Shown: piece after piece, positions 1 to 54,464 of the stretch | How positions within the stretch are numbered: the stretch's first letter is position 1 | Layout: each line of letters opens with the position of its first letter | Assembly (NCBI GenBank): GCA_023515795.1 | Contig: JALGPX010000041.1 | Span: 1 to 64,000, forward strand | Length of the DNA: 64,000 nucleotides | DNA from: Amoeboaphelidium occidentale | Taxonomy: Eukaryota | Direction of reading: 5' to 3' | Made by a program: the position numbers and the translations under genes | Notes under the pieces: generated by a model | The model's input: the letters and a program-made list of their open reading frames with translations, nothing else | What the model was told of the DNA's origin: nothing | Database searches by the model: none

Positions 1-1219
1 GTTCTGCGTTTAAAGAGAGTTGTTCCTAAAAATCGGTCTTTCAGCTATTCAATAAGTACTGATGGCATCTCGCTACATTTGAACTTGAAAAAACAGACTT
101 CAAAATCAGAATCTACCATTGATGAATTCGGATACAAAACAGATGGCTCCAAGGAATACTCTCCGGTGGATTTAAAATATAGGACTGTAGTTGGTATTGA
201 TCCAAACAGAAAGGACTTATTCATGGCTTATGATGGTAAACACAAATTTCAAGTTACGGGCAAAGAATGGAGACAAATGGCGGGTATTACAGCAGCAAAG
301 AAGAAACGAGAGAATTGGTTGAAGAAACGAAATGACATTGTGAATGCAAATTCCAATGTACCTACATCAAAGGTATCCCATGTTNTCTACTATAGATGAG
401 TTTGGATACAAAACAGATGACTCCAAGGAATACGTTCCAGTGGATTTAAAGGATAGGACTGTAGTTGGTATTGATCCAAACAGAAAGGACTTGTTTATGG
501 CTTATGATGGTAAACAGAAGTTTCAGGTTACTGGTAAAGAATGGAGACATATGTCGGGTATTACAGCAGCAAAGAAGAAACGAGAGAATTGGTTGAAGAA
601 ACGAAATGACATTGTGAATGCAAATTCCAATGTACCTACATCAAAGGTATCCCATGTTTCGGATCTACATAATCATTTCTTTTATCTCTTTGCTCATTTG
701 AATTTATGGTTTGACTTTTATGGTTCCAGGCAATGGAGGCAGTTGCGAAAGAGATCAAGTATCAAACGACAACAAGCTCTTGATTTAATAGTGAATCGGA
801 TTATTGGAAAGGCTGAGAGGAAATGGTATCTTGGTCACAAAGGAGTTAATGCTAAGCATAGCCGGTCATACAATAATGTGTTTGTTGCTTTTGGTGGTAG
901 TCAGTTTAGTAGTACTTCTCGTGGACATCATCCGATTCCTAGGCGTTCATTGATCAATGCATTGAAACAGAGAAAGATTCCCATGAGACTTGTTGATGAG
1001 TTCAGAACAAGCATGCTTTGTTGTAAATGCAAGGAACCGTTACCAAAGAGGGGAATGTGGCACGTGAAACGATATGATAACTGCAACATCTTTTGGAACA
1101 GAGATGTCAATGCTGCAGTGAACATCAGAGAAGTTTTCATCTCAGTGAATGCATCCAAGGGAGTCAGGCCAGGAAAATTCTCAAGATCATACAAATTTTG
1201 TAGCTCAACCAAAGCTTAA
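1..1219 (+). mobile_element. Fanzor (eukaryotic TnpB-like RNA-guided endonuclease), 5'-truncated by the window edge; internal duplication and frame break at the N at 385
   Basis: Frame 1 is open from base 1 (VLRLKRVVPKNRSFSYSISTDGISLHL, Fanzor1-type TDG motif). RuvC-I VVGIDP (D 473-475), VAFGGSQF, RuvC-II VDEFRTSMLCCKC (E 998-1000), RuvC-III WNRDVNAAVNI (D 1103-1105); stop 1217-1219. Confidence 0.9.
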
Positions 1220-1356
1220 TTGCGGAGGGTCTTACGGAGTACATTGCTATTTTATAGCGTTTGTTACATATACCGAGTTGAGTAGTTGGAATTCCGCGTA
1301 TTTCAGTCTAGTGCTGAATAACGTAGCACAAAAGTGCTGACTACTTAAACTCTCAA
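1200..1356 (+). ncRNA. candidate Fanzor omegaRNA scaffold / element right end
   Basis: Lies directly 3' of the Fanzor ORF. Stems: 1275-1287 with 1339-1352, 1299-1306 with 1314-1320, AGCAC-AAAA-GTGCT 1325-1338, GCTAT-TTT-ATAGC 1246-1258. Possible pseudoknot GCGGA 1222-1226 with TCCGC 1293-1297. Ends at TCAA 1353-1356. Confidence 0.6.
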
Positions 1357-1428
1357 GTCAAAGTTATCGCAAGCAAGAACACAAAAAACATCTTAAGCAA
1401 GCTACAATGACAAAATGTCTATTCAGTG

Positions 1429-2229
1429 TTAGTCTTGGAAGAAACGTCCATGCATTTCTGTAGACAAAACATTAACGAGAACCTCAACCGGAGCATTACT
1501 AAAACACGTCGACGGATACACGTTTGTCCCCCACTTTGGATGTTTCAGCATAGAACAACATCCGGTTTGATGGAATTCATACATTAACAAACGCTGCGAA
1601 GCATGAACATCAGGATAATAGGAAGAGCCTCGATTCCCAATGAATGGATACCCAGATGCCGGATCTGTAAAATCTGCCCAATATCCCAATGACCGCAGTC
1701 TGTGACAAAGAGTAAGAGCAAATAGAAAGAACTTCTGCAGCAGCAAATCCTTCTCATGCTCGATTTCTGGGCCAGTACCAACCAGATCATACTTGGACTT
1801 CTGGAATACAGGGATTACGTTTACAGGTAAATCTCTCTTGAATTCATCATTCCCATTTGTAGCTGGAGCGTAAAACTCTGGAAATATTTCCTTTAGTTCT
1901 GACTTAAACCTGCCGGGCGGAGGCCTGTGGACCGAAAATTCAACAGAGACTTCAACTACGTCACCACAACTTAATTCTCTTGTGAGAGCTTTGCGTATCT
2001 CTGTAATCGATTTAATGTACTTGTAAAGTTCCAGCGGTACCATTTCAGTGGTAGCTGTGCCTTGTTCTTGCTCTTCTTGGGTCATGCTCTCAGGATCTTG
2101 CCTAAGTAGTGAACGCTTAATCTTGTTGGTCTCCTCCAACTCAGAAGACGTATAAGAAAGCAGGAACTTGAAACGCTTCCGTAAAGGCGGCTGTAGAATG
2201 GACTTGTTTCGGTTGTTATCGGTCATCAT
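1429..2229 (-). CDS. MMADHC: MMADHC/CblD cobalamin trafficking protein homolog
   Basis: GYWADFTDPASGYPF and GCCSMLKHPKWGTNVYPSTCFSNAP motifs; first ATG at 2229. Confidence 0.85.
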   Translation of the reverse strand: MMTDNNRNKSILQPPLRKRFKFLLSYTSSELEETNKIKRSLLRQDPESMTQEEQEQGTATTEMVPLELYKYIKSITEIRKALTRELSCGDVVEVSVEFSVHRPPPGRFKSELKEIFPEFYAPATNGNDEFKRDLPVNVIPVFQKSKYDLVGTGPEIEHEKDLLLQKFFLFALTLCHRLRSLGYWADFTDPASGYPFIGNRGSSYYPDVHASQRLLMYEFHQTGCCSMLKHPKWGTNVYPSTCFSNAPVEVLVNVLSTEMHGRFFQD

Positions 2230-2684
2230 TGTGAATATGTCTCGAGAGGTCAAAGTTAGAAAACAAGAACCTTGTACAATCGATCTTGGATCTTATTTAA
2301 GCGCGGAAATCTTTAAGAGCAAGTAAAACAATATATTATATGAGCTATAAAAATTGATCTATTTCAGGATCTTTGAATATGATACTCTGTTTAGTCGTTG
2401 TGTTCATACAGAGATGCAAAACAATTAGTCGAAGTAAAGAGATCATGACCTTGTCATCATTTTAACCAGCCCACTCACTTCGGCTCTAATCCGTTCGTCT
2501 AAATATGGCGCTGTCGCAAACCCTTTTGACATCTCCGCCCGCTACATTTCTCTGCATCCGATCACCAGAACCTTAGCGCCGTAAAGGACTTCCCCTTCTT
2601 TTCCTTGAAACACGCATATTTTAATCCGGAATTAAAATTACCGTAAGTTCCGGTGATATTCTTGACTCATCATGTGTAGCACGC

Positions 2685-4056
2685 ATGTTTCGTTTTAAAG
2701 ATAACCCAGCGCCAGAGAGCCAAAGACAGCGCTCGAATACATTACAACCTTCCTCAGTTTATGCTTACAGTATGCCTTACACTCCTCCATTAACACCCAT
2801 TAAAACTTCATTTGGGGGTCAGTCGATGGTGTTTAATGATTCTTCACAATTGGGAGTGGCTGGCGCAACAAACGGTGGCTTTGAGCAAGTGGCTTCCGAT
2901 GGTTTCCTGTTTAGAGGTAGTGGTGGCGCAATTGGTCATTCATCAGGTGGCAACACTACGGCTGACTCGATAAGTAATCTTCCAAGTTTAGAAGATTTAC
3001 TGGGTATACCATCGGTTGGTGGCTCAGCTGATTGTGGCAATGACGAGAACATGGCGCCTAATTGTATGAATGGCATGTCATTGGATGTTGCTAATAATGG
3101 TGCCTCTGCTAATAACATCTCTGTCTGTGGTAGAGATGATTTGTTGCAAGACAATTTTGATTTTGCTGTTAATAGTTCTAACATGTCTGAGTCGTTACTG
3201 TTGAGCGGTAACGAGCAGTTCATTAATAATGGCTTAACCAATGCGCTGGAAAATTCGGATGGTATCAAACAGATGGCGGCCAAAATGCGTAAATATGGTG
3301 TCCCTAGAAGGAGGCATTCTATGTTGGAAACTTTGGCTCCATCGCCTGAGCTGTTAGCTACACATTACATGGCCATGCTTTCTAGTCCAAGAAGATCAAG
3401 TAGTTTGCAGAATGCTACGGGTAGTATGCGTGGTAATGGGGCTTATGATGACGCTGGAACGTTGTTGGGCCATGAACAAAGAAACGCTGATGATGAGAAT
3501 GGCTTTCCTCAGTTTCATGGGATTTTTAATGATTATCATAGTTTTAATGGCAGTAATTTAGATGGGATTTACTTGAACGAGTTTCAAGGGGTCAATGAGT
3601 GCAGTTTTGATTCTGGTTCTCAAACTGTAATCAGTGACGAATGTTCTGTCATGCAAGGATTCGATGGCAGGGATAAAAGCCTGTTTTCTGGTAAAACAAA
3701 AAGAAAGAAGCTTGAAAAAGATGAAGTAATTTTCAAATGTGAGTACCCTGGATGTGGAAAGACTTTTGACAAGTTGCAGAGTTTCAAGTCTCATGAAACT
3801 TCTCACTCATCCGATCGTCCTTTTGCCTGTTCTCAATGTGATTTAAGGTTCAGAAGGAACCACGATCTGAAAAGGTTTTGTTTTTACAATTGCACAACTA
3901 ATGTTTAGACACGAGCGCATTCATGCTGGATACAAGCCGTATATCTGTGTTGTTTGTAACAAGTCGTTTTTGCGTTTAGATGCGTTGAACCGACACATGA
4001 AAGTCAATAACGGACAAGGTTGTAAGAAAGGTGCTCCAAAGAGATCAAGCAAGTGA
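2685..4056 (+). CDS. C2H2 zinc-finger transcription factor (3 fingers, Crz1-like C-terminus)
   Basis: CEYPGC..H..H and CSQC..RNHDLKR|HERIH across the 34-nt intron 3875-3908, then CVVCNKSFLRLDALNRH; stop 4054-4056. Confidence 0.85.
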
Positions 4057-4131
4057 TAATAGGGGAATTAATGATTTAAATTTTCTCGTTTTGAAGAAAG
4101 GCAGTTAAGTGCTATTTTTAAACTTTTGATC

Positions 4132-5675
4132 ATGGAAAGTCGAGGACCTGTTGGATGTTGTCCGTTAGTGCGGAATATCAAGAAGGTTTCAAGTGGTGTT
4201 TAGGATGCTTATTGTTAGAACAAGGTGGCTCCTGCTCCCATACCCGCAGATCAGAGGATACAAAGAACAAACACATTAACTGATGTGGCCAAAACTCCTG
4301 AGCAGTATCGAAGTGCTAATAGTCTATCATGGAAATCGCGTCCTGGGACTGCCGCAAGTATGATCGCAGCTGTCAGAGATACCCTAGCGAAAGTGGTGAC
4401 CTTCAAACAACCAGAAGATTCATGGAAAACAAGAAGTATCAAAGCTGGCGAACTTAGAGTCTGGATAGGAACGTGGAATATGCACGGGAAACCACCTCCT
4501 GAAACTTTGGAACCATTCATAATGAAACCGAAGTCCTTGGATGAAGATCCTGATGTTTCCTACCATATTATGGCGATTGGAACACAAGAGTGTGAACGAA
4601 GCATCGAGAAGTCCGTGATATATCCCAGCAAAGGATTATGGGAACAGAAGCTGAAACAATATCTTGGAGATAGATACACTATGATAGATAGCGAAACGAT
4701 GGCTGCTATTCACTTGTGTGTATTTGTTCTTACACCTATGGTTCCTTTCATATCTAATTTGGAATCTGCAGTTGTCGCTACGGGGATCGGAAATGTTGTA
4801 GGCAATAAGGGCGGTGTCGGTATAGGGTTCAAGCTTAATCAAAGTGCATCATTCCTTTTCGTTACAAGCCATTTCTCAGGTAAAATTATCCGAAAGGAGC
4901 GGTTTTCTAATTTATAGCTCATCAAAAGAACGTGAACGAGCGCAATAATGACTTTGCACGGATCTGCAAAGAGTTGAAACTGAAAGGAAACACTTCGCGG
5001 AGCCATACTGGCGAGACAGATGTAACACGTAGATTTGATTACACTTTTTGGTTTGGTGACTTGAATTATCGAGTGAATGGAACTAGAAAAATGGTCGATG
5101 AACTCCTCGGTGACAACATGTTAGAAACGCTCTTAGCTAATGATCAATTGAGGCTTGAAATGGAAAAGGGCGCAGTGTTCAAAGGCTTCAAAGAACCAGA
5201 GATTACTTTCTTACCAACTTACAAATTTGACTTACCAAAGAAAGTTAAACGAGCATTCAGCATAAGCCAGAGAAAGCGTTCATCGTCTGGTGCATCAGTT
5301 GTAAATCAGGATTCAGATTCAGATTATGTCGCAGTTAGTCCTATTCAAGAAGAGGAATTATCTCGAGACAAAGCACATGAGTCTCTACATTCGCCAACCA
5401 AGACTAATCTGATACCAAAACGCTCAAACAGTGTTTACGATTCTTCAAAAAAGCAACGAATACCCAGCTGGACAGATAGAATATTGTTTAAAGAGGAAAG
5501 TATTTCAAGCCAAATCTGTGCCACAAAATACGATGCTTGTATGGATATGATGCATTCTGACCACAAACCAGTCTATGCAATCTTTAACATGGCTTTTGAC
5601 TGGAGAAAGGTTTTTGAGAACGAGGATTCCAAGAGAGCTCTTACTTCTCAAAAGAATCGCTGCGTTATACTTTGA
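4132..5675 (+). CDS. inositol polyphosphate 5-phosphatase, INPP5E-like, C-terminal CaaX (CVIL)
   Basis: GTWNM, GTQE, GNKGGV, FWFGDLNYR, PTYKF, PSWTDRIL, SDHKPV motifs; introns ~4186-4218 and ~4880-4917. Confidence 0.85.
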
Positions 5676-5700: not shown

Positions 5701-8502
5701 TTAATAGAACCTTTTTGGCTCTTTCCATTGGTTGAACTCGATAAAGATAACTGATACGTTATCGGTACTTCCAAGTCTAAGGGCTTCATTAACCAGAGCC
5801 TCACTGAGACCTTGAGTTTTTCTGCCATTCTTAGCCAAGTACTTGTTGATGAACTTTCTCAAGCTATCATTGTCCATTACATCCCACAAACCATCACAAG
5901 CAAGAACAATGTATTCTTCATCACCTTGCAATGTGAACTCCTTGAAATCAGCTTCTGGGATAATCACCTTGTGACGGAAGTTTCCGAAGGCACGTGAAAC
6001 TGCAACAATACCATTAACACGCATAACTCCACCTTCTTCACTAACGAAGCCGCCCAACTTCTCGATTCTTTTCTTTTCACTCTAAAAATTAGTGTCAATA
6101 AGATTAAATCTTACATCATCTCCAGGCTTGTGTGGATCTACCAACTTGACATCTCTCTTCTTGCAGAACATTGAAGCCATTGAGTCACCGACCCATCCAA
6201 CAAGCAGTTTCTTGCCTTTGAAGACAATAACAACACCTGTACTACCAGCAGTATTAGACTGGTATAAACGGTCAGAATGTTCCTTCAACTCGTTGTTTGT
6301 GAACATGAAAGACTCAGCTAAAGCCTTCTTAGGATCAGTTTCAAGATCAGGATGCTTCATAAAGTTGACGTGCATATGTCTTTCAACATAATCAGCAACT
6401 GATACACCACCATGTCCATCATAAACAGCATAGTATGAGATTGGGTCGTCCTTTTTGTTTCGGCCAACCATCAGATCAATATAAGGCATGTGAACGTGAC
6501 GATCTTCCATAGTTGGTCTGATACCTTGTTTTGCACAATATTCGTATCTGGTGTGAACTGGAGGGGCGTCAACCTGTGGATTTTCATCAAATTGTTTGAC
6601 ATCTTTCAATAGATTTGCCTCGACTAAACGAGCTGCCTCCTTCTTGATTTTATCCATGTCATATAGCTCTGCTTGAGAAACGTGTTCAGGAACTCTTATG
6701 TCTTGTGGTCTTGACATAATATCTCTTGCCAGTTTCTTGGTTTCGGTTACAGCAAAGTAATCCCACAATGAAACATTCGGAAAGTTCCTTTGACTCTTGA
6801 AAACTGTTGTGACATAATGAGGATCAGAATAGATTTCATGTAAGACAACAGCATCAACAGTCTTCTCTAAGTCCTTCAAGAAAACATTCTCTGGCAAGGT
6901 GAAGGATGATGGCATGCCACCTGCAGGAGCATTGTGGTTCTCAGTAATGGCTGCAACAGCTGTTTTCCAAGTATTCCTGATCTCATTGATCCAGCTCTCT
7001 GTAGAAGATTTTTCTTGAACTTCAAAAATGTAATTCTTTTCCTTGTCAAAGTTGAAGCGAGTCTTAATCAGAATGCGGTTATCACCTTGCGGCAAAATGT
7101 CAAAGATTTCTTTGAATTTGAGTTCTCCGTCGATTTCTTGCCCGTTTGCGGTAGTGCTCCAAGCAATTCGAGATGGCTGGATGATGACATGTCTCTTTTG
7201 AGGTCTGCCTCCTTCTACTTGAACAACCAATACTCCTTCTTTCGATGCTTTGTTTGCAGCTCTATCGGAGACTGCTTGTGGAGAATTCAATTGAAGACTA
7301 GCACGAACTCTCTTCAAAATAAGAGGAGCCCACTCAACAATGTTCCTGTTGTTCTGATACTTTTTCAAGATATTATTCAGTGGCTCTTCTAGGCCAAAAC
7401 GTAATACTGCACGAATAGTATTGATGTCAAAGGTCACATTGTAAAAGAACCAGCAAGCAGCTTCAATTACAGGTTCCTTTGAATTGTGAACCATAATGGA
7501 GTTCTTTGCAGCTGGGAAAGCTCCAACGGCTGCAAATAACAACGAGTTGTCATCAGCAAGTGCCAAGTTACCCAATGTCCAACAGCTAGTTTCTGCTAGA
7601 CTTGCATCTTGAGTGTGAGAATTCATAGAGTTGACAATCAAGAATCCCATTTTCTCCATGATAGCTTTTCTTAAAGGTTCAGTAACAGTAAGATTTCTTA
7701 ATACCCAAATGACTTGTGTCTGGAATGACGCATCTTGCATATGACTACTTAGCTGTGATAAAAGAATATCAAGACCACCCTTGTCAGAAATCAACTGAGC
7801 ATTCACTTCAGCATAATTGATCAGAGCTCTAATTGCATCTTTAGCAGCAGGGGACAACGGATTCTCTTTCAAGAAACTCAAAATATGTTCTACGCGTGGC
7901 TCTTCTCCCTTGTTTGGGCCTTTTGAACGAGAATTACGGCTCAGAATAACCAAAAGTGAGAACAACTTGTCAATGCCAATATGTTTTTGATCTTTAACCA
8001 GATCGAACACCAAATCGATTAGTTCAGCATTGTACTTCAATGCAGTATTAGATTCAGACATTGCAATATTTCCGTAGAATAAGCAAAAGTCATGAATATG
8101 CTGACGATACTTGTCTCTCTGTTCAAGACCTAACGTCTTGTAGCTTGTCTTCAAAATCTTGGTCAATTCCGCGACATGAGCTGCCTTCTGCTCAGGAGCA
8201 AACTTAGCCGGAGTCAATGCTGGGTTTATCTGAGTAGGTAGAGCGTAGTTGATGTCAATAATGGCCGGAGTACGATCATTATCATTCATGCTCATATTGG
8301 TTGAGATCTTCTTCATATCCAGAGGATCATCAGATATTCCGTTTTTACTGTTGTCAGTAGTTTCGATGTCAGATTTATCAGATAAGCTTTGTGTTAATGA
8401 ACCATTGAATGATGTAGACGCTTTGGTATCAACACTGTTGCGATCATCTTGAACTAGCAACTTGTCCTTACTTGCGTTCGCTTTAGCTCCGTCCACTATC
8501 AC
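5701..8502 (-). CDS. PP2C/PPM phosphatase with N-terminal armadillo-like repeats and PH-like domain (5' end uncertain)
   Basis: RPTMEDRH, VYDGHGG, GSTG, WVGDS, HKP|..EKKRIE (intron 6082-6114), AVSRAFG, LACDGLWD, GSTDNVSV; ARM-like CWTLGNLA and WVLRNL; PH-like KEGVL...WINEI. Confidence 0.85.
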
Positions 8503-13225: not shown

Positions 13226-14362
13226 TTAAAATTCTTCATATGGTGGCACTGAAGGCAATCTTACGTGATCACGCTTCATTATTAACTTTCTGAACTTGCT
13301 GATAAATGAATTATCCTTGTGGTTTCCATACATTACAGCCTGAGTGATTATGATCATGTCAAAAATCAGAGTGCCAATACTACCCAACAGGTAAGGAAAA
13401 GTGCTTCTAAAGAATTTCTCATCAATTGCTGGCTGTCTAATAAGAATCTGAAGACCATAAGTAACATTTGAGGAAATTGTCAGAACAAACAGAGCAATGG
13501 ATAATCCTTCCACGTCCTTCAATTTGTAATTAGTGATAATCTGAGGAATACGACTGAAAAAATACAATAGACCAGAAGACCATGCCAAAACTTCACCAAT
13601 AATCTGCGCGAATTCTTCCAAATCATCTTCAGCATTACAGAGAGGCAATTCAGACATTTGCATAACTTTGGATGATACAGCTGGAATGCAAATCGCTACA
13701 GCTGTTATGATCGCAATGTGTGTAAGTGTGCTGCTTCCTGCAGCGGAATACGGCCGATTAGCTGTTTTTGTGTGCAGATAAGATTCTCCATGCAATACTT
13801 TAAAATCAGAACTTCCCATTGATGCATCCTGAGGCTTCAACAGTGGAGTATGTTCTCCTGTAGTGGAACCATTCATATGTAAACTGACATGCGATCCACT
13901 CAGAAAGCTTTGATTGTCTTTTGGTGTTGAAGAAGAACCATCAAAATCGTCTTCCTCTTCTTCTTTTGACGTATTGAAGGGCAATGGCGTGCCTTTTGGT
14001 CCTTTATACACGTAAGCATAGTAAAAGTACTGCAATAGACTCAGAGCATCGCTGATCACAAAGTATAATCCCGTGTATTTGACTGTAGGGTACTGATTAG
14101 TGAGGAATGCACCAAACATGTTTGAGATATCCCCGAGTAACCAAGTGAGCAGAAATCCAAAGCTGAGGCCTTCCACTGTTTTACGCTGATAGTTCTTATA
14201 CAACTGAGGGAACAATGCAACAATGAACAGGAGAACAGAGATGATACCAAAGAAGAATCCGGATATCTCCAGCGGCGTATACACGCAATCCTTAAAGTAC
14301 ATTCCGATCCATTCCACGTAATGATGGCCATCTTTGTACACGGGGTCACACGTACAATCCAT
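13226..14362 (-). CDS. PQ-loop transporter (Ypq/PQLC2-like), paralog 1
   Basis: LFPQLYKNYQRKTVEGLS, SRIPQIITNY, FPYLLGS. Confidence 0.9.
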   Translation of the reverse strand: MDCTCDPVYKDGHHYVEWIGMYFKDCVYTPLEISGFFFGIISVLLFIVALFPQLYKNYQRKTVEGLSFGFLLTWLLGDISNMFGAFLTNQYPTVKYTGLYFVISDALSLLQYFYYAYVYKGPKGTPLPFNTSKEEEEDDFDGSSSTPKDNQSFLSGSHVSLHMNGSTTGEHTPLLKPQDASMGSSDFKVLHGESYLHTKTANRPYSAAGSSTLTHIAIITAVAICIPAVSSKVMQMSELPLCNAEDDLEEFAQIIGEVLAWSSGLLYFFSRIPQIITNYKLKDVEGLSIALFVLTISSNVTYGLQILIRQPAIDEKFFRSTFPYLLGSIGTLIFDMIIITQAVMYGNHKDNSFISKFRKLIMKRDHVRLPSVPPYEEF

Positions 14363-35855: not shown

Positions 35856-38800
35856 TCACATCTGGCGTGATGCTGAAGATATTCTGTTTAAGTAACTGAG
35901 ACTTTCGATAATGTTTGAATCGTGCTTTTGCAGCGTCTTCTCCACTTGTGCGTATGTGAAACCTGATTTTCCTTCAGCAGCATCTTTTCCTTCGATAATA
36001 TTTGAATCCATTCTTTCCATGACCCACCGAACAACAGCATCCCAAGAAATATCTCGTTTTCTTTTNNNNNNNNNNNNNNNNNNNNGTGCTTTTGCAGCGT
36101 CTTCTCCACTTGTGCGTATGTGAAACCTGATTTTCCTTCAGCAGCATCTTTTGCTTCGATAATATTTGAATCCATTCTTTCCATGACCCACCGAACAACA
36201 GCATCCCAAGAAATATCTCGTTTTCTTTTCTCCCATGAAGCTTCCACTTGCTGTTTTATGTTATCGTACTCATCATTTTTTACCTTCTTAACGGAAACTT
36301 TGAAAAGCGCTCCAATTGGTCTATGATCTGAAAGATTGCATTCGAATCTTCTGTATTGAAGAAGCTGAATGCGAGGCTTAGAAACTGGAGAGAATCCTGA
36401 TGCAAAAGGATTTTCAATATTTTTAGCTTCAGCATTTGGTTCGCCGTCTTCCTTCGGATCCAGCAATGAAGGCATGAACACAGGACTATTAATTGGAAAA
36501 ACTACCTGATATGGAACCCGATAAGCAGCGTCCAGATAGGAGGCTTGACAATGCAGAAAAGTATCTCGAAACAGAATTCTGTCGCAGTATGCAGGAACTC
36601 TTTTCTTCTCGCTCGTGTCGTAGTTGTCAGTTCTTCGATCATATTTGTAAGTAGGCGCAAATCTTAACGGTGCTTCTTCAAACATCCTTAAAAGACAAGT
36701 GGAGCCATATTGTTGTCTTTGCTTTATAAGCTGGTCACAAGCCCAAAGAGCGCCCCAATTCTTCTCTTTGATAAGTTTCAAGCACTTTTCTCGTTCCAAG
36801 TCAATCCTGTAATTTAAATCTCCCGAGAAAAATACATTCTCGTGATCTAAAATGTGACTTCCATCTCCGCCTCTCATAAATGCTAATCTTGTTTTCGCGT
36901 CATCTGAGACCGGAGGAAGACCAGATGTTCTCAAGATTGTAAACGCATCTAAATTTCTTTTCCCCACCTTTTCTTGGTGCGCCGGCAAATGTGAAGTTAT
37001 GAAACAGAATGATGTGTTATCCAAAATAAATCGTGTAATAATGGCACCCTTGTTCCCATAAGTTCCACCCATACCCGTTGAAACGTGAAACGAATCGATG
37101 TTGGAAATCCTGTTCGATCGAAGAAAATCCTCACGAACTAAAATAGCAATAAGTAGTCCAACCATATTTCTAGCTTCTATAAGGACGAAAGGCTGCTTGT
37201 AATTGTCTTTCATAGATTTAACCAGTCTATCTTTCCAAGCTTTAGTCTTACTTTGATAATCTGCCTCATTTTGCTGCTGTGAGTTTTGACTGCTAGAAAG
37301 AATCTTCAAAAATCCTTTCGCGGCATTCTTGTTCGACTCCAAATTTACAATTTCTTGTAAGCCGAAGACTAAAATGTCTGGTACCTCCCTTTGAGAAGAA
37401 TCTAGTTCGACCAACTTACTAGATTTACCGACAGACTGGTCAAAGGTGACCCATTTATCCAGAAAGTATTGATCTTCTGGCCTTCCGCCTTCTGAAACAC
37501 TCAATTGTTCAGGCTTTGTGGAGTCCACATTCCAAGATCCAACAAGAAGGGTCACTTGGCTGTTTGAAGTATAAGTAGTATCTCGCCTGCGAAGTTCCAT
37601 ATCTCGAAAGTCTCGTGGAAACAAAGAATCAAATATTCTAACTTTGCCTTGTTTTGAAGCGGACACCACCACAAGCTGACCAGAATTTAGAACAGATTCT
37701 GGATCTAATGTTAGTGTCTCAACAGAATCGTCAACTTCGGCCTGCCAGGATTTGATAACGACGGGTGGTTCAACGTTCGACGAATCTATACCATACGGAA
37801 TATCAAGAACAGATATTCTCCCAGTCCCTATTGCTACCCATAACCATCTGTCACTCAAACCTAATAAAGAAGATATCCTGTAGGAACCTGTGTCTATCAC
37901 GCGAGTATTGGTGAAAGTGGAAGCATCCCATTCTAATATTTTGCCGTCCATATGGCCTGAGTACACAAAGCTTCGAGATTCGTTAACCACTGTATGATTA
38001 ACCGGTGTTATCGATGGAATGCAACTTTTTGAAGATATTGAGGCTAACGCCGTAATTGCACCGAAAGTCTGAGGTACTTCAATGTGTTTCTTGAAGAATG
38101 AATCTTCATCACATGGATCAACGACTTCAATAGTTTTATCCCTACTGGTCCAAAGCGTCCCATTCAAATAGCAAACGTACAGTTGCTTAGATGCCATACG
38201 AATAGTCTTTGGTTTATCTTCTATGGATGCAATACCTTGCATTCTTTCACTGTTCAAATCAGTTTTAGAGTTGCTGAACTGCTGGCCCGCTGAGAATAAA
38301 GAGTTCTCACTGGTACGATCTCCATAAAACGAACTCCATAATTGCAGCACTCCATTATCATCAATAGTCCACATTTGCCTCCGATGTCGAATTATAGCAG
38401 TAATCGTGTATGAATGAACAGATACACGACGATGTAATATTTCCAACGTGGCACCGTGAACACACCATAACTCGCCATCTGAAAATCCAACCCATGCGTA
38501 AACACCATCATTAGATCGTAAAGTGCTCACTAAAAATGCTACAGCTGTGACTTTTACATCATTCTGTCGGACTTGTGTTGCAAGTAAATCCCCAGTTTGT
38601 AAGTCGTATGCTCTTAAAGCATTTTGTGTACCAATTAAGCAAACATTCCTCGAAACAGCCATGCATTGCACACCACTTTTGAGAGTCTGAGTAATTTCCG
38701 TATTGAACGGCGGTTTCGGGAATTGATTAGATGACATTCGAACAGGATAAGGATACGGAACAGATCGATTTGATGATGATGTCTCCAGAAATATGAAGGG

Positions 38801-39536: not shown

Positions 39537-42500
39537 TCAAACAACTACTACAGCAGCAGCATTGCCATTGTTCTCCTTCTGCTCATTAATTAAAGCTTCC
39601 TGTTCCTGTTTCTCAAACAAATACTCTGCCATCTGATCACCAGAACTTATCAACAGATTCTTCTTGGAAGTCCGAACAACATCGCCAGAAACACTAATGA
39701 TACCGTAAGCTTGATTCTTTACGGATTCTCTCAAAGAAAAATCTTCCAGCTTGAATGAAACTAATGCATTGCCTCCCATCGCTGTGACATGCGCTTTCAG
39801 TACTGCATCAATAGTTGTCTTGAACATATTTATGAATCGACCATAATCATCGTCCTCTGAGTATTCTACAAAATGCGAGCCCAGCTGATGATGCATACTC
39901 AGATCTTCCTTGATAAAATGTAAAGAAATTCTTCCTAGATTATCCACAATCTCAGTTGCAGTGCATGGCAGATATGAATTTGGTGTAATAACAATAGGAG
40001 AAGGATTATGCAAGATAGTCCCAGAAGCAGACAACCCTTTGTCTTTCACGCCAGTAACTTCTTCTTCTTTAAACTGTCCCAGTACTGCTGCTGTGAGTGT
40101 TATCGTTATCAAATCTTCTTTTTGCATTTCAATTCTTACTCGAATAGAATGTACCAAGCAACGCAAATAATGCCCACTGCTATTTTTTGATGAATACAGC
40201 AAATGTCCCTTCAATTCCTCATACAATTCCTTAAATACCAATGCCAATTCTCTGTTTGGATGCCGAACATTTGGATTTAATTCTGCTTGTTTCACGAGAA
40301 CAACAGTTTCTGTACAGAACTGTGCATGATTTCCATTATACGTTCCTAGTTGAATCTGCAGAAAATCATCTCCATACTTGGAATCTTTACGGCTATGATA
40401 ATGCTGTGGCAAATACTCTGTAGTACACAACTGAAATCGATTGAAATCCTGTTTTGCTTCTTCACTATCATTCTGATAATCATCATCGTCAACATATACT
40501 GCCATTAAATCTTCATCAAAATCTTCATCGTTGTTGTTGTTGTTTGTGGTATGATAATCATCGTCAATATGCACAACGATCGAAGTTGTATTCGCAGCCA
40601 TCCTGAAATTAGAAATATTATTCATTTCAGAATCTGCTCCAGATTCTTCGTTACTAATAACAGCTTCCTGTTCTTCTTTACTACTCTTCAGCTTTGCCAT
40701 TTCCTTGTATTTTATATCATGCTCTCTTGCCAAAGATTCTAATCTATCAATTCTATCAGAGCATTTCTGTGCCAGCGGTTCCATTCTATTCTTTCCCCCA
40801 AATCCCGTTCTAAAAGTGTTTGTATTGCTGGACGAAAAGATTTTTCTTGGCAGGGTCAATTCATACAGACAACATCCTGTGCCGTATGCATATGCCAGTA
40901 CTAGACAATCCTTTCCAGAACCTGAAGAATCAATATTCTCTGCTGCTGCTACAATCTTGTACTCAACTCTATACCCAAACAATGCATTATATCCTTTCAG
41001 CCTCATCTGGAACAATAGCTGCCTATAAAGCTCATAATCTATAAAAGGCAACATGTCTGATAATTGCTGAGCAGTTGAATATTCTTGATTACTACTGTTA
41101 TTATTAGCAGTGTTGCTACTAGTATGATAATTAGCACCAGAACTGGAAGCAGTAGTGTTGTTAGTACCAGCATTAACAGCACTAGCGCCACCAACTCCTC
41201 CTACACCACCGTTACCACTCATTAAGCTTGCATTGTGGTGATGGTGATGATAATGATGTCCACCATAATAATTATTACTACTTCTCAGCAAATACTTTCT
41301 AGTCTTGTAACAATAAGCCTGCACCAGAGAACTTTCTAAACCACTGCTCTGACTACTCAATACAGTCATTCCATTCGCAATCGCATCATTGCTTGGAAAC
41401 TCCGTACTCACAATCAAAACTTCCGGAACCGAATTCGATGAAGATTCTGTATTCTGCGTCTTAAAATGACTACACTTCCTGCATTTAGTATTAAACTGCA
41501 TAGGAAAAGGTGTATTGTTATTAAAAGAATAAGATGAAGAAGCATTAGAGGTAGCATAAGGAACATGCAACACACAATCACAACCATTATCATTACTACT
41601 ACTACTACTACTACTACCACTCTTCAAACTCGATGCAATCTTGACTGCCGTGCCTTGTACACACAGCAACATTAAATCATCATCTATACTCACTGTTTCT
41701 GTATAACCTAGAACACAATTACAATTCAATACTCTACAATGCTGTCTCAATTCATCCCTCAGTTCATCCAACCATTGTTCCAAAACAGAATCAGAAGTAT
41801 TAGCAGCAGCAGCAGCCGCCGCAACCGCTGCAGCAATCGGAGCAGGATTATTAGTAGTTGTGGCATTTGCGTCATCATCTCCTACTCCAGCACCAGCAGC
41901 AGTCGATACAATATTAGCAGTCTGTTTCTGCAATTGCATCTGTAACTGCTGCTGTTCCTGTACCAGTTTAACACTCTTTGCAGCAATTAAACCACCATAA
42001 TGAGAAACTGAGTGGTGCGAAGAAGTAGAAAGCAGTGGAATAAAATCAGCAGCAGAATTACTATTTCCAGAAGTACCAACAGCAGCAGCAGAAGATGAGT
42101 TAAAGCATGTACCTCTCAATCTCCCTGTAATCATTCCTTGCTTCTTATCAAAATCATATGATTGTTCAATACCATAAACTGAATCACATCCTTTTGCTAA
42201 ACATTCTATAGAGAGAATCTGTTGTAATTCCGATGATATTTGATACAACAATAATTGTCTTTGATAATTAGAAAGTTTAGGAGATCTGAAACTATCCTTC
42301 CAATTATATTCTGGATCATCAACTTCCACGAGCGCTTCAATCAGACTTGTATTTGAATTTATACCATTTACGGAAGGAGTACTTAAAGAATTATACAATC
42401 TCACCAGAGGGATGTCTTCACTGAAATATTCTACTCTTAATTGTACTAATAATTCTCCTCTCAGAATATCCGTAGTTAGTGAATCATACCAAACCAAATA

Positions 42501-47480: not shown

Positions 47481-47601
47481 CATAAATTCTATAATAAAAA
47501 CACTTCTAATTCACTAATATCATGAAAAAAAAGTTGTGGTATAGAATGTGCCACAATGCTTTCTATCATGCTGCGCCACCGCATGAAACAGCAACCAGAA
47601 C

Positions 47602-47758
47602 CTCCACTCCACTCCACTCCACTCCACTCGAGCGAGCGAGCGAGCGAGCAAGGAACAACCATACTCAGTTACATCATAATAAACCTTCCATTATTCAATC
47701 TATTCTAATTTCAAACTCCTTTTTATCTTTTTTAATTATAATAATAATAATAATAATA
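47602..47758. repeat. microsatellite cluster (CTCCA)n, (GAGC)n, (ATA)n at the right border of the island
   Basis: Directly visible tandem repeats. Confidence 0.9.
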
Positions 47759-54068: not shown

Positions 54069-54464
54069 ATGAACAATCTCAAGATTTTGAATCTTGTTTG
54101 CAACAAGATCATGTTGTCAGAACAGTTTGTTACCAAGCTTAGAGACCAAGACATTCTTAAAGTTGGCCAAATACGCAAAGATGATTTTTTCAGCCCAAAG
54201 CTAAGTGAAATTCAATACTTTCAAAACATTATGAAACCTAAACAGCTTTCCGTAAGCGAATTGGAAAAGGCTGAGAAGGGCTATGAACAAGAAAAGGCCA
54301 AAATATGCAGTTACACACCAAAGAATATCCCAATAGGCCTGCATAAAAGACAAAACCCTGTCGGTAATGACACTCAAAATCATCGCTCCATATTCTCTAG
54401 ACGGAACGCTATTGATCTCACAGCGTCAAGACCAACATCATCAGAAGAAGACATACTTGGATAG
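54069..54464 (+). CDS. hypothetical small protein
   Basis: ORF filling the gap between neighbouring genes; no motif recognised. Confidence 0.35.
   Translation: MNNLKILNLVCNKIMLSEQFVTKLRDQDILKVGQIRKDDFFSPKLSEIQYFQNIMKPKQLSVSELEKAEKGYEQEKAKICSYTPKNIPIGLHKRQNPVGNDTQNHRSIFSRRNAIDLTASRPTSSEEDILG

Follow-up and report, generated by a model that had tools for sequence, protein, structure and literature searches.

Fanzor1 nucleases with guide RNAs encoded at the right end of their elements have been known since 2023, and SpuFz1 of Spizellomyces punctatus is the nearest solved relative of the protein family studied here. As described by Saito et al. (2023; PMC10432273), the SpuFz1 omegaRNA consists of a scaffold of ~75 nt in the interval from the stop codon to the right end, followed by a guide of 14-15 nt derived from the flank; in the scaffold, a 6-nt linker connects stem-loop 1 to a long stem 2, the base of which abuts the guide while its distal part is dispensable. 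Yoon et al. (2023; 10.1101/2023.08.09.552727) presented Fanzor1 guide RNAs as three-stem shapes with a stem-loop adjoining the guide, and placed the target-site duplication of insect-virus Fanzor1 elements in the last stem-loop. Xu et al. (2024) described a conserved first stem-loop of 7 bp, the remainder of the RNA being variable, and the word 'pseudoknot' is absent from their paper. Regarding prototypes with a defined right-end tetranucleotide, the TCAA cleavage site of IS608 is part of the element and is required for the transpososome, according to He et al. (2011; PMC3201880).

Aphelid proteins are present in the published catalogue of these enzymes. Among the 38 Amoeboaphelidium entries of Supplementary Table 1 in Saito et al. 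(2023; PMC10432273) is P0001, a protein 93% identical to the Fanzor1 of the present locus, which the table labels 'FZ1', Eukaryota; the protein family is therefore already catalogued. The genus is not mentioned in the eight other text supplementary files of that study (the search left a picture PDF aside), nor in two supplements of Jiang et al. (2023), and our literature search returned no paper whose main text mentions 'Fanzor' together with 'Amoeboaphelidium'. Likewise, no description of a guide RNA for a P0001-type Fanzor1 was found in a search that stopped short of the supplements of Yoon et al. (2023), which possibly include aphelid loci.

In this work, we analysed the right end of a Fanzor1 element located at the start of a 64-kb stretch of Amoeboaphelidium occidentale DNA, referred to as the window. 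With moderate confidence, our results indicate that a Fanzor1 transposon present in multiple copies has its right part at positions 1-1352, and that the three-way junction formed by positions 1272-1352 is likely its omegaRNA scaffold. The features discussed below are collected in Table 1.

Table 1. Features at the right end of the Fanzor1 element and in its flank (window coordinates; MFE, minimum free energy).
Feature	Position	Strand	Basis or remark
Fanzor1 gene, C-terminal part	1..1219	+	window begins within gene; PF07282, profile, model of relative
TAA stop codon of Fanzor1 ORF	1217..1219	+	
Variable linker	1220..1271	+	contains upstream arm of proposed pseudoknot and candidate first stem-loop
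Candidate first stem-loop	1241-1264	+	6+3 bp; core hairpin 1246-1258, 5 bp
Three-way-junction core, predicted omegaRNA scaffold	1272..1352	+	folding, window scan, variant copy
Closing stem	1275-1287 with 1339-1352	+	13 bp, A1347 bulged
Mini-hairpin, 2 bp	1288-1295	+	inside core
Hairpin A	1296-1324 (MFE register), 1299-1320 (register of the sequence-only reading)	+	
Hairpin B, AGCAC-AAAA-GTGCT	1325-1338	+	
Most likely right-end boundary of repeated element	1352..1353	.	contig loose ends
TCAA	1353..1356	+	flank or possible target-site duplication, not conserved element end
Predicted guide segment	1353..1372	+	length taken from published 14-21-nt Fanzor guides
MMADHC-like host gene (PF10229), convergent, single-copy	1429..2229	-	marks unique flank

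The gene upstream of the fold is a Fanzor1. Its open reading frame (ORF) carries the Pfam TNB domain (Cas12f1-like; PF07282, E 1.6e-9), and the catalytic motifs RuvC-I (GIDPN), RuvC-II (VDEFRTS) and RuvC-III (NRDVNAA) are found in the window copy as well as in its relatives, the closest of which are four A. occidentale proteins with 72-95% identity. A search with P0001 as query (E up to 0.001) yielded 949 representatives, 47 of which, mostly long, were picked to construct a family profile. This profile matched the Fanzor1 structures 8gkh, 9cer and 9cf0 (SpuFz1, GtFz1 and PpFz1) with E values of 1.8e-53, 3.1e-47 and 2e-42, over their full length of ~600 positions; the matches to mimivirus Fanzor2 (9b0l) and to TnpBs comprised the TNB / zinc-ribbon part only. 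As the window holds only the C-terminal part of the protein, P0001 was modelled in its place with AlphaFold2 (pLDDT 85.8, pTM 0.80). The structure nearest to the model was SpuFz1 (TM 0.62-0.64, with 18-19% identity in the structural alignment), the top seven Foldseek hits were all Fanzor1 (TM 0.51-0.64), and TnpB, Cas12f and Fanzor2 reached a TM of at most 0.29. Assignment to Fanzor2 was considered by means of the regular expression of Yoon et al. and rejected: the protein has DPN instead of DPG, and 172 residues, not 120-160, precede the RuvC-II Glu, features that place it in Fanzor1 rather than Fanzor2. The TNB domain, the profile matches, the P0001 model and the FZ1 listing of P0001 all bear out what an earlier, sequence-only reading of this DNA had proposed, namely that a Fanzor gene lies upstream.

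The zinc ribbon CxxC...CxxC of this protein is not intact, its third Cys being replaced by Tyr (YDNC in the window copy and in P0001, CDNC in P0002). In addition, positions 112-384 and 386-658 constitute a 273-bp duplicate (93%) on either side of a single N at 385, an arrangement suggestive of two copies having been joined in the assembly. Because of the Tyr at the third Cys of the zinc ribbon and the interruption of the gene at N 385, the activity of this particular copy appears doubtful.

Downstream of the stop codon, the three-way junction was obtained as the minimum-free-energy fold in contexts of 81, 181 and 276 nt, the arms of its closing stem, as read from the window, being GAGTTGAGTAGTT (1275-1287) and GACTACTTAAACTC (1339-1352). 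This junction had been proposed from the letters alone, and the pairings, hairpins and motif coordinates then listed were all exact. At -28.3 kcal/mol, the core (1272-1352) is considerably more stable than its 200 shuffles, which average -15.3 kcal/mol (z -4.53) and none of which was as good. Since the 81-nt limits of the core were picked once the fold was known, the whole 64-kb window was scanned as well, on both strands and in steps of 5, giving 25,240 windows of 81 nt. The scan window starting at 1271 ranked 79 of 25,240 (top 0.3%), and only 14 of the sampled windows, from ~8 loci, fell below -28.3 kcal/mol; these loci with more stable folds displayed no kinship to one another or to the Fanzor1 element. 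The full interval 1200-1380 was of ordinary stability (z -0.84, 46 of 200 shuffles as good), and an Rfam search of positions 1-3000, with E up to 1, returned no match.

A chance fold in the 3' untranslated region, matching the repeat boundary by coincidence, would be compatible with the ordinary stability of the interval as a whole, with the ~8 other loci that fold at least as stably, and with core limits set after the structure was seen. We consider this explanation decidedly improbable, in view of the shuffles, none of which matched the core, the last base of the stem, which is also the final base that the copies share, and a variant copy with no listed differences in the core versus 7 in the 52 nt of the linker (both described below).

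The minus strand of the core also folds, at -23.5 kcal/mol (z -3.2), leaving the plus strand better by 4.8 kcal/mol, and 4 of the 30 pairs of the core fold are G.U; the weaker minus-strand fold and these four pairs favour an RNA of the plus strand. The terminal 80 nt might instead represent a transposon end acting at the DNA level only, either as a terminal inverted repeat (TIR) with an internal complement or as a transposase hairpin, and giving rise to no functional RNA. The closing stem does consist of the terminal 14 nt of the element paired with an internal complement, which transposase-binding ends can resemble, and the good fold of the minus strand points in the same direction. We hold this to be rather improbable, considering the G.U pairs and the Fanzor1 gene directly upstream of the fold, as well as the fact that in every characterised Fanzor1, as far as the available parts of the two 2023 reports describe them (PMC10432273; 10.1101/2023.08.09.552727), the right-end repeat forms part of the guide-RNA scaffold. 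Given that location of the repeat, a role as DNA end and a role in the RNA are not exclusive.

The right boundary of the element was delimited with Logan contigs of four public runs (X1-X4), aligned to positions 400-2600 at 80% likeness. Contig depth was not taken as copy number, and the uncovered stretches (1155-1269 in X1, 1362-1435 in X3 and X4) are holes rather than findings. The Fanzor1 ORF region is multi-copy, being matched by many short contigs with 85-99% likeness. Eight 'behind' loose-end rows were found at 1327-1356, and those at 1343 in X3 and X2 correspond to one junction, leaving seven distinct sequences. Six of these seven extend at least to ...AAACTC (1352), and each is then followed by a different flank: those from X1 (1327) and X3 (1329) part from the window inside hairpin B and rejoin it at ...TTAAACTC or ...TAAAACTC before entering flanks that begin with TTGAT and CAATAAA; for one of X4 and one of X2 the departure is at 1352, into AAAAAT and AAGAAA, respectively; and the remaining two depart at 1355 (X1) and 1356 (X3). 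The seventh leaves at 1343, within the closing stem. Further, X1 record 8, a single-copy contig of the window's own locus (7,397 nt, 1 difference), begins at 1323; this start, 30 bases before 1353, fits a branching after 1352 of the Logan assembly graph, the k of which we take to be 31.

Sequence shared by the copies extends to 1352, and divergence sets in 0-4 bases later. The last base of the closing stem is the last base common to the copies, the end of the stem lying 0-4 nt from the divergence point, and a structured non-coding core is found between the Fanzor1 stop codon and the divergence of the copies (1352-1356). It had been predicted that conservation would end abruptly near 1356, and the copies do leave into unrelated flanks at 1352-1356; they neither diverge at the stop codon nor continue far past 1356.

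One contig contains the flank and lacks the element. X2 record 15 (5,186 nt) matches the window at 1353-2337 only (its own positions 4124-5108), so that the 4,123 letters preceding its junction are not the Fanzor1 element, and we regard this contig as a candidate for an empty site. The named relatives of the MMADHC-like gene in the flank are from chytrid fungi, and a 98% identical protein of this gene (P0006) is encoded on a Logan contig that is likewise 5,186 nt long, which we infer to be the same contig as record 15. Within the 64-kb window, no further copies of the element were detected besides the 273-bp duplicate, and the terminal 14-mer occurs once. No relative was found by protein scan and 20-mer scan of metagenome contigs, no match by protein scan of genome contigs or by the search for relatives among viral contigs, and none when a spurious 63-aa ORF lying across the scaffold was used as query for other copies via called proteins. 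A bacterial MAG contig (L001) recovered by the 20-mer scan of genome contigs was discarded, as it matches those 20 bases only, and by our own estimate ~1 chance hit is expected.

The sequence-only reading had placed the end of the element at TCAA, as in IS200/IS605 elements, and the beginning of the guide at about 1357. The four bases after ...AAACTC at seven right ends (that of the window included) are TCAA, TCAA, TCAC, TTGA, CAAT, AAAA and AAGA; TCAA thus follows the shared end in two of the seven, and TCA in three. TCAA is a common tetranucleotide (0.008 per position), and the candidate empty site has it together with the flank and without the element upstream. A recurrence of TCA at three of seven ends exceeds chance, with a probability of ~0.004, by a rough estimate, for two further ends sharing three bases; it may reflect the end of a subfamily, or a target-site preference or duplication. 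As regards other types of end, Helitrons terminate in CTRR and are followed by T. A Helitron-type end was rejected here as unsupported: the right end lacks CTRR, and T opens the flank at only four of the seven ends.

An IS200/IS605-type right end, in which TCAA at 1353-1356 would be the element's own cleavage tetranucleotide as in IS608, with the guide running from 1357, was weighed against these data. At its right end IS608 is cleaved at TCAA, which stays with the element and is found 10 nt beyond the right palindrome's foot on the 3' side, as reported in PMC3201880; in our locus TCAA begins 14 nt past the foot of hairpin B (1338), and TCA recurs as stated. We nevertheless find such an end scarcely credible. 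The other five ends read differently, and in X2 record 15 TCAA is kept together with the flank. Besides, Yoon et al. (2023; 10.1101/2023.08.09.552727) traced Fanzors to IS607, not IS605, TnpBs, and placed Fanzor1 in eukaryotic transposons with TIRs and target-site duplications, and the present element, whose left part lies outside the window, has no known Y1 transposase. An IS605-like terminus is therefore not supported, since TCAA follows the shared end in only two of seven cases, and 1353 is the more likely start of the guide, 1357 being its start only if TCAA is a target-site duplication.

In one variant copy, X3 record 23, the listed differences are distributed unevenly. This record covers 919-1326 and has 14 substitutions and one gap relative to the window, the gap and 13 of the substitutions being listed: 7 of these differences fall in 301 nt of the ORF and 7 in the 52 nt of the linker (1220-1271), whereas the 55 nt of the core (1272-1326) have none. 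The comparison of linker and core gives a Fisher p of 0.005 for the listed differences, the one unlisted substitution being free to fall anywhere, core included. The candidate first stem-loop lies in this linker and has 6+3 bp, where the first stem-loop of Xu et al. (2024) has 7; the same record carries 1256 A>T and lacks 1263, and hairpin 1246-1258 is weakened by these two changes.

In the remainder of the core, both variant 3' halves keep the closing-stem arm. The stem changes seen among the variant ends are one-sided only: C1341>T, in two ends, turns a G-C pair into G.U, and T1346>A, in one, enlarges the existing bulge. Hairpin B is less uniform; one variant 3' half keeps 4 of its 5 pairs with 3 of 4 loop bases changed, and the X1 copy leaving at 1327 keeps only 2 of the 5 in-register pairs. 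Two further contigs show 6 differences to the core in 83 positions and 9 in 70, respectively.

The pseudoknot that had been suggested between TCCGC (1293-1297) and GCGGA (1222-1226) fared less well than the junction itself. In 4,098 of 20,000 shuffles, the 12-mer of the junction had a perfect complement of 5 bp in the 52 nt upstream, which is within chance, and the proposed pairing competes with helices of the minimum-free-energy fold, where 1294-1297 are already paired. In X3 record 23, GCGGA carries the substitutions 1223 C>T and 1226 A>C, and 1293-1297 are unchanged among the 13 of 14 substitutions listed; with two of five upstream bases changed and none listed at the partner, the pseudoknot is weakened in this copy.

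Compared with the described systems, the region would map onto the SpuFz1 plan as a stem-loop (1241-1264), a 10-nt linker, a guide-adjacent stem and the flank. Judged by the SpuFz1 report (PMC10432273), the two share a terminal repeat that forms the 3' strand of the guide-adjacent stem, a guide taken from the flank (predicted in our locus) and a core of similar size (75 nt in SpuFz1 versus 81 nt here); they differ in that SpuFz1 has one long hairpin, whereas here the guide-adjacent stem encloses two hairpins in a three-way junction. With the Fanzor1 guide RNA of SfAV, our locus, as predicted, has in common a three-stem scaffold (~120 nt in SfAV), a stem-loop beside the guide, the end of the element within a stem and a non-autonomous element encoding Fanzor alone; in SfAV, however, a TTAN target-site duplication lies inside the last stem-loop, while TCAA lies outside the stem here. 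IS608 and ISDra2 resemble the locus in the right-end scaffold and the flank-derived guide (both predicted here), the hairpin shortly before the end and, for the window copy, TCAA; unlike them, the aphelid copies carry TCAA in only 2 of 7 cases, and the protein is a full-length Fanzor1, not an IS605 TnpB, to judge by the TM values given above. It is plausible but unproven that 1272-1352 is the omegaRNA scaffold of the catalogued Fanzor1 family, at an ordinary Fanzor1 right end.

By analogy with SpuFz1 and other Fanzor1/TnpB systems, transcripts would read through the 3' untranslated region and beyond the end of the element, and the Fanzor1 protein would bind the scaffold, probably via the closing stem beside the guide and the hairpin upstream of it (1241-1264). 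A guide would be provided by the following 14-20 nt of flank, beginning at 1353, or at 1357 should TCAA be a target-site duplication. Unoccupied copies of the site would then be cut beside a TAM by the ribonucleoprotein, and repair would re-copy the element.

A further reading, to which we accord a minor though appreciable chance, is that of a still-mobile aphelid Fanzor1 whose guide stem has grown into a three-way junction, whose TCA(A) target is duplicated on insertion and also acts as TAM, and whose site is unoccupied in a close relative (the 5,186-nt X2 contig). If this were true, the unoccupied site of X2 would be the exact substrate for a homing guide starting at 1357.

Returning to the reading that we favour, a scaffold at an ordinary Fanzor1 right end, what is new from this locus is a concrete scaffold prediction for an uncharacterised Fanzor1 family, which puts the core at 1272-1352 and starts the guide at 1353. 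The pair of occupied and unoccupied sites hinted at by the contigs would offer natural material for testing the homing model in a eukaryote.

The sequence TCA directly follows the shared right end of the multi-copy Fanzor1 element (...AAACTC, ending at 1352) in three of seven junctions, a set that comprises the window's own (1353-1356) and the copy ends, and the flanks past TCA are unrelated. Its recurrence could reflect a preference for particular target sites, a duplication of the target site or the end sequence of a subfamily. The end of the element is separated by 76 nt from the stop codon of the neighboring gene, which is MMADHC-like; the nearest protein to this gene's product, 98% identical, is encoded on a Logan contig of 5,186 nt, the next-nearest relatives are chytrid proteins with 42-44% identity, and no Amoeboaphelidium occidentale protein was found among the matches listed. 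A scan of the whole window for 81-nt folds placed the most stable ones, at -30 to -35 kcal/mol, at six loci, which displayed no relatedness when compared with one another.

Features of the window outside the Fanzor1 element
Feature	Position	Strand	Remark
MMADHC-like gene (PF10229)	1429-2229	-	convergent to element
Stable 81-nt fold	8171-8256	+	window scan
Stable 81-nt fold	13651-13731	+	window scan
Stable 81-nt fold	36361-36441	+	window scan
Stable 81-nt fold	41876-41971	-	window scan
Stable 81-nt fold	47566-47651	-	window scan; within simple-repeat sequence
Stable 81-nt fold	54356-54441	-	window scan

Within the Fanzor1 gene, a single N at 385 lies between two direct duplicates of 273 bp (112-384 and 386-658; 93% identity) that differ in reading frame, the first being similar to the relative P0001 (EWRQMAG) and the second to the relatives P0003 and P0004 (EWRHMSG). 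The assembly seems to have joined two distinct copies of Fanzor1 here, and the window gene as assembled is therefore interrupted or chimeric.

In three runs, short contig pieces matched the window only at 881-924 and 1082-1128 (44-47 nt), with other sequence on either side of the match. Since both stretches encode the most conserved motifs, namely GG.QFS..SRGH and NRDVNAAVNI, these pieces probably derive from other Fanzor1 families present in the same organisms. Separately, P0003, an annotated Amoeboaphelidium occidentale protein encoded outside the window, is a gene-model fusion in which a Fanzor1 that breaks off within its zinc ribbon is followed by or preceded by a PIG-X/PBN1-like protein (PF08320) in one chain.

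The third zinc-ribbon Cys is replaced by Tyr in both the window copy (motif RYDNC, approximately 1066-1080) and P0001; in the relative P0002 this position is Cys. Judging from this substitution, the window copy and P0001 may be inactive nucleases.
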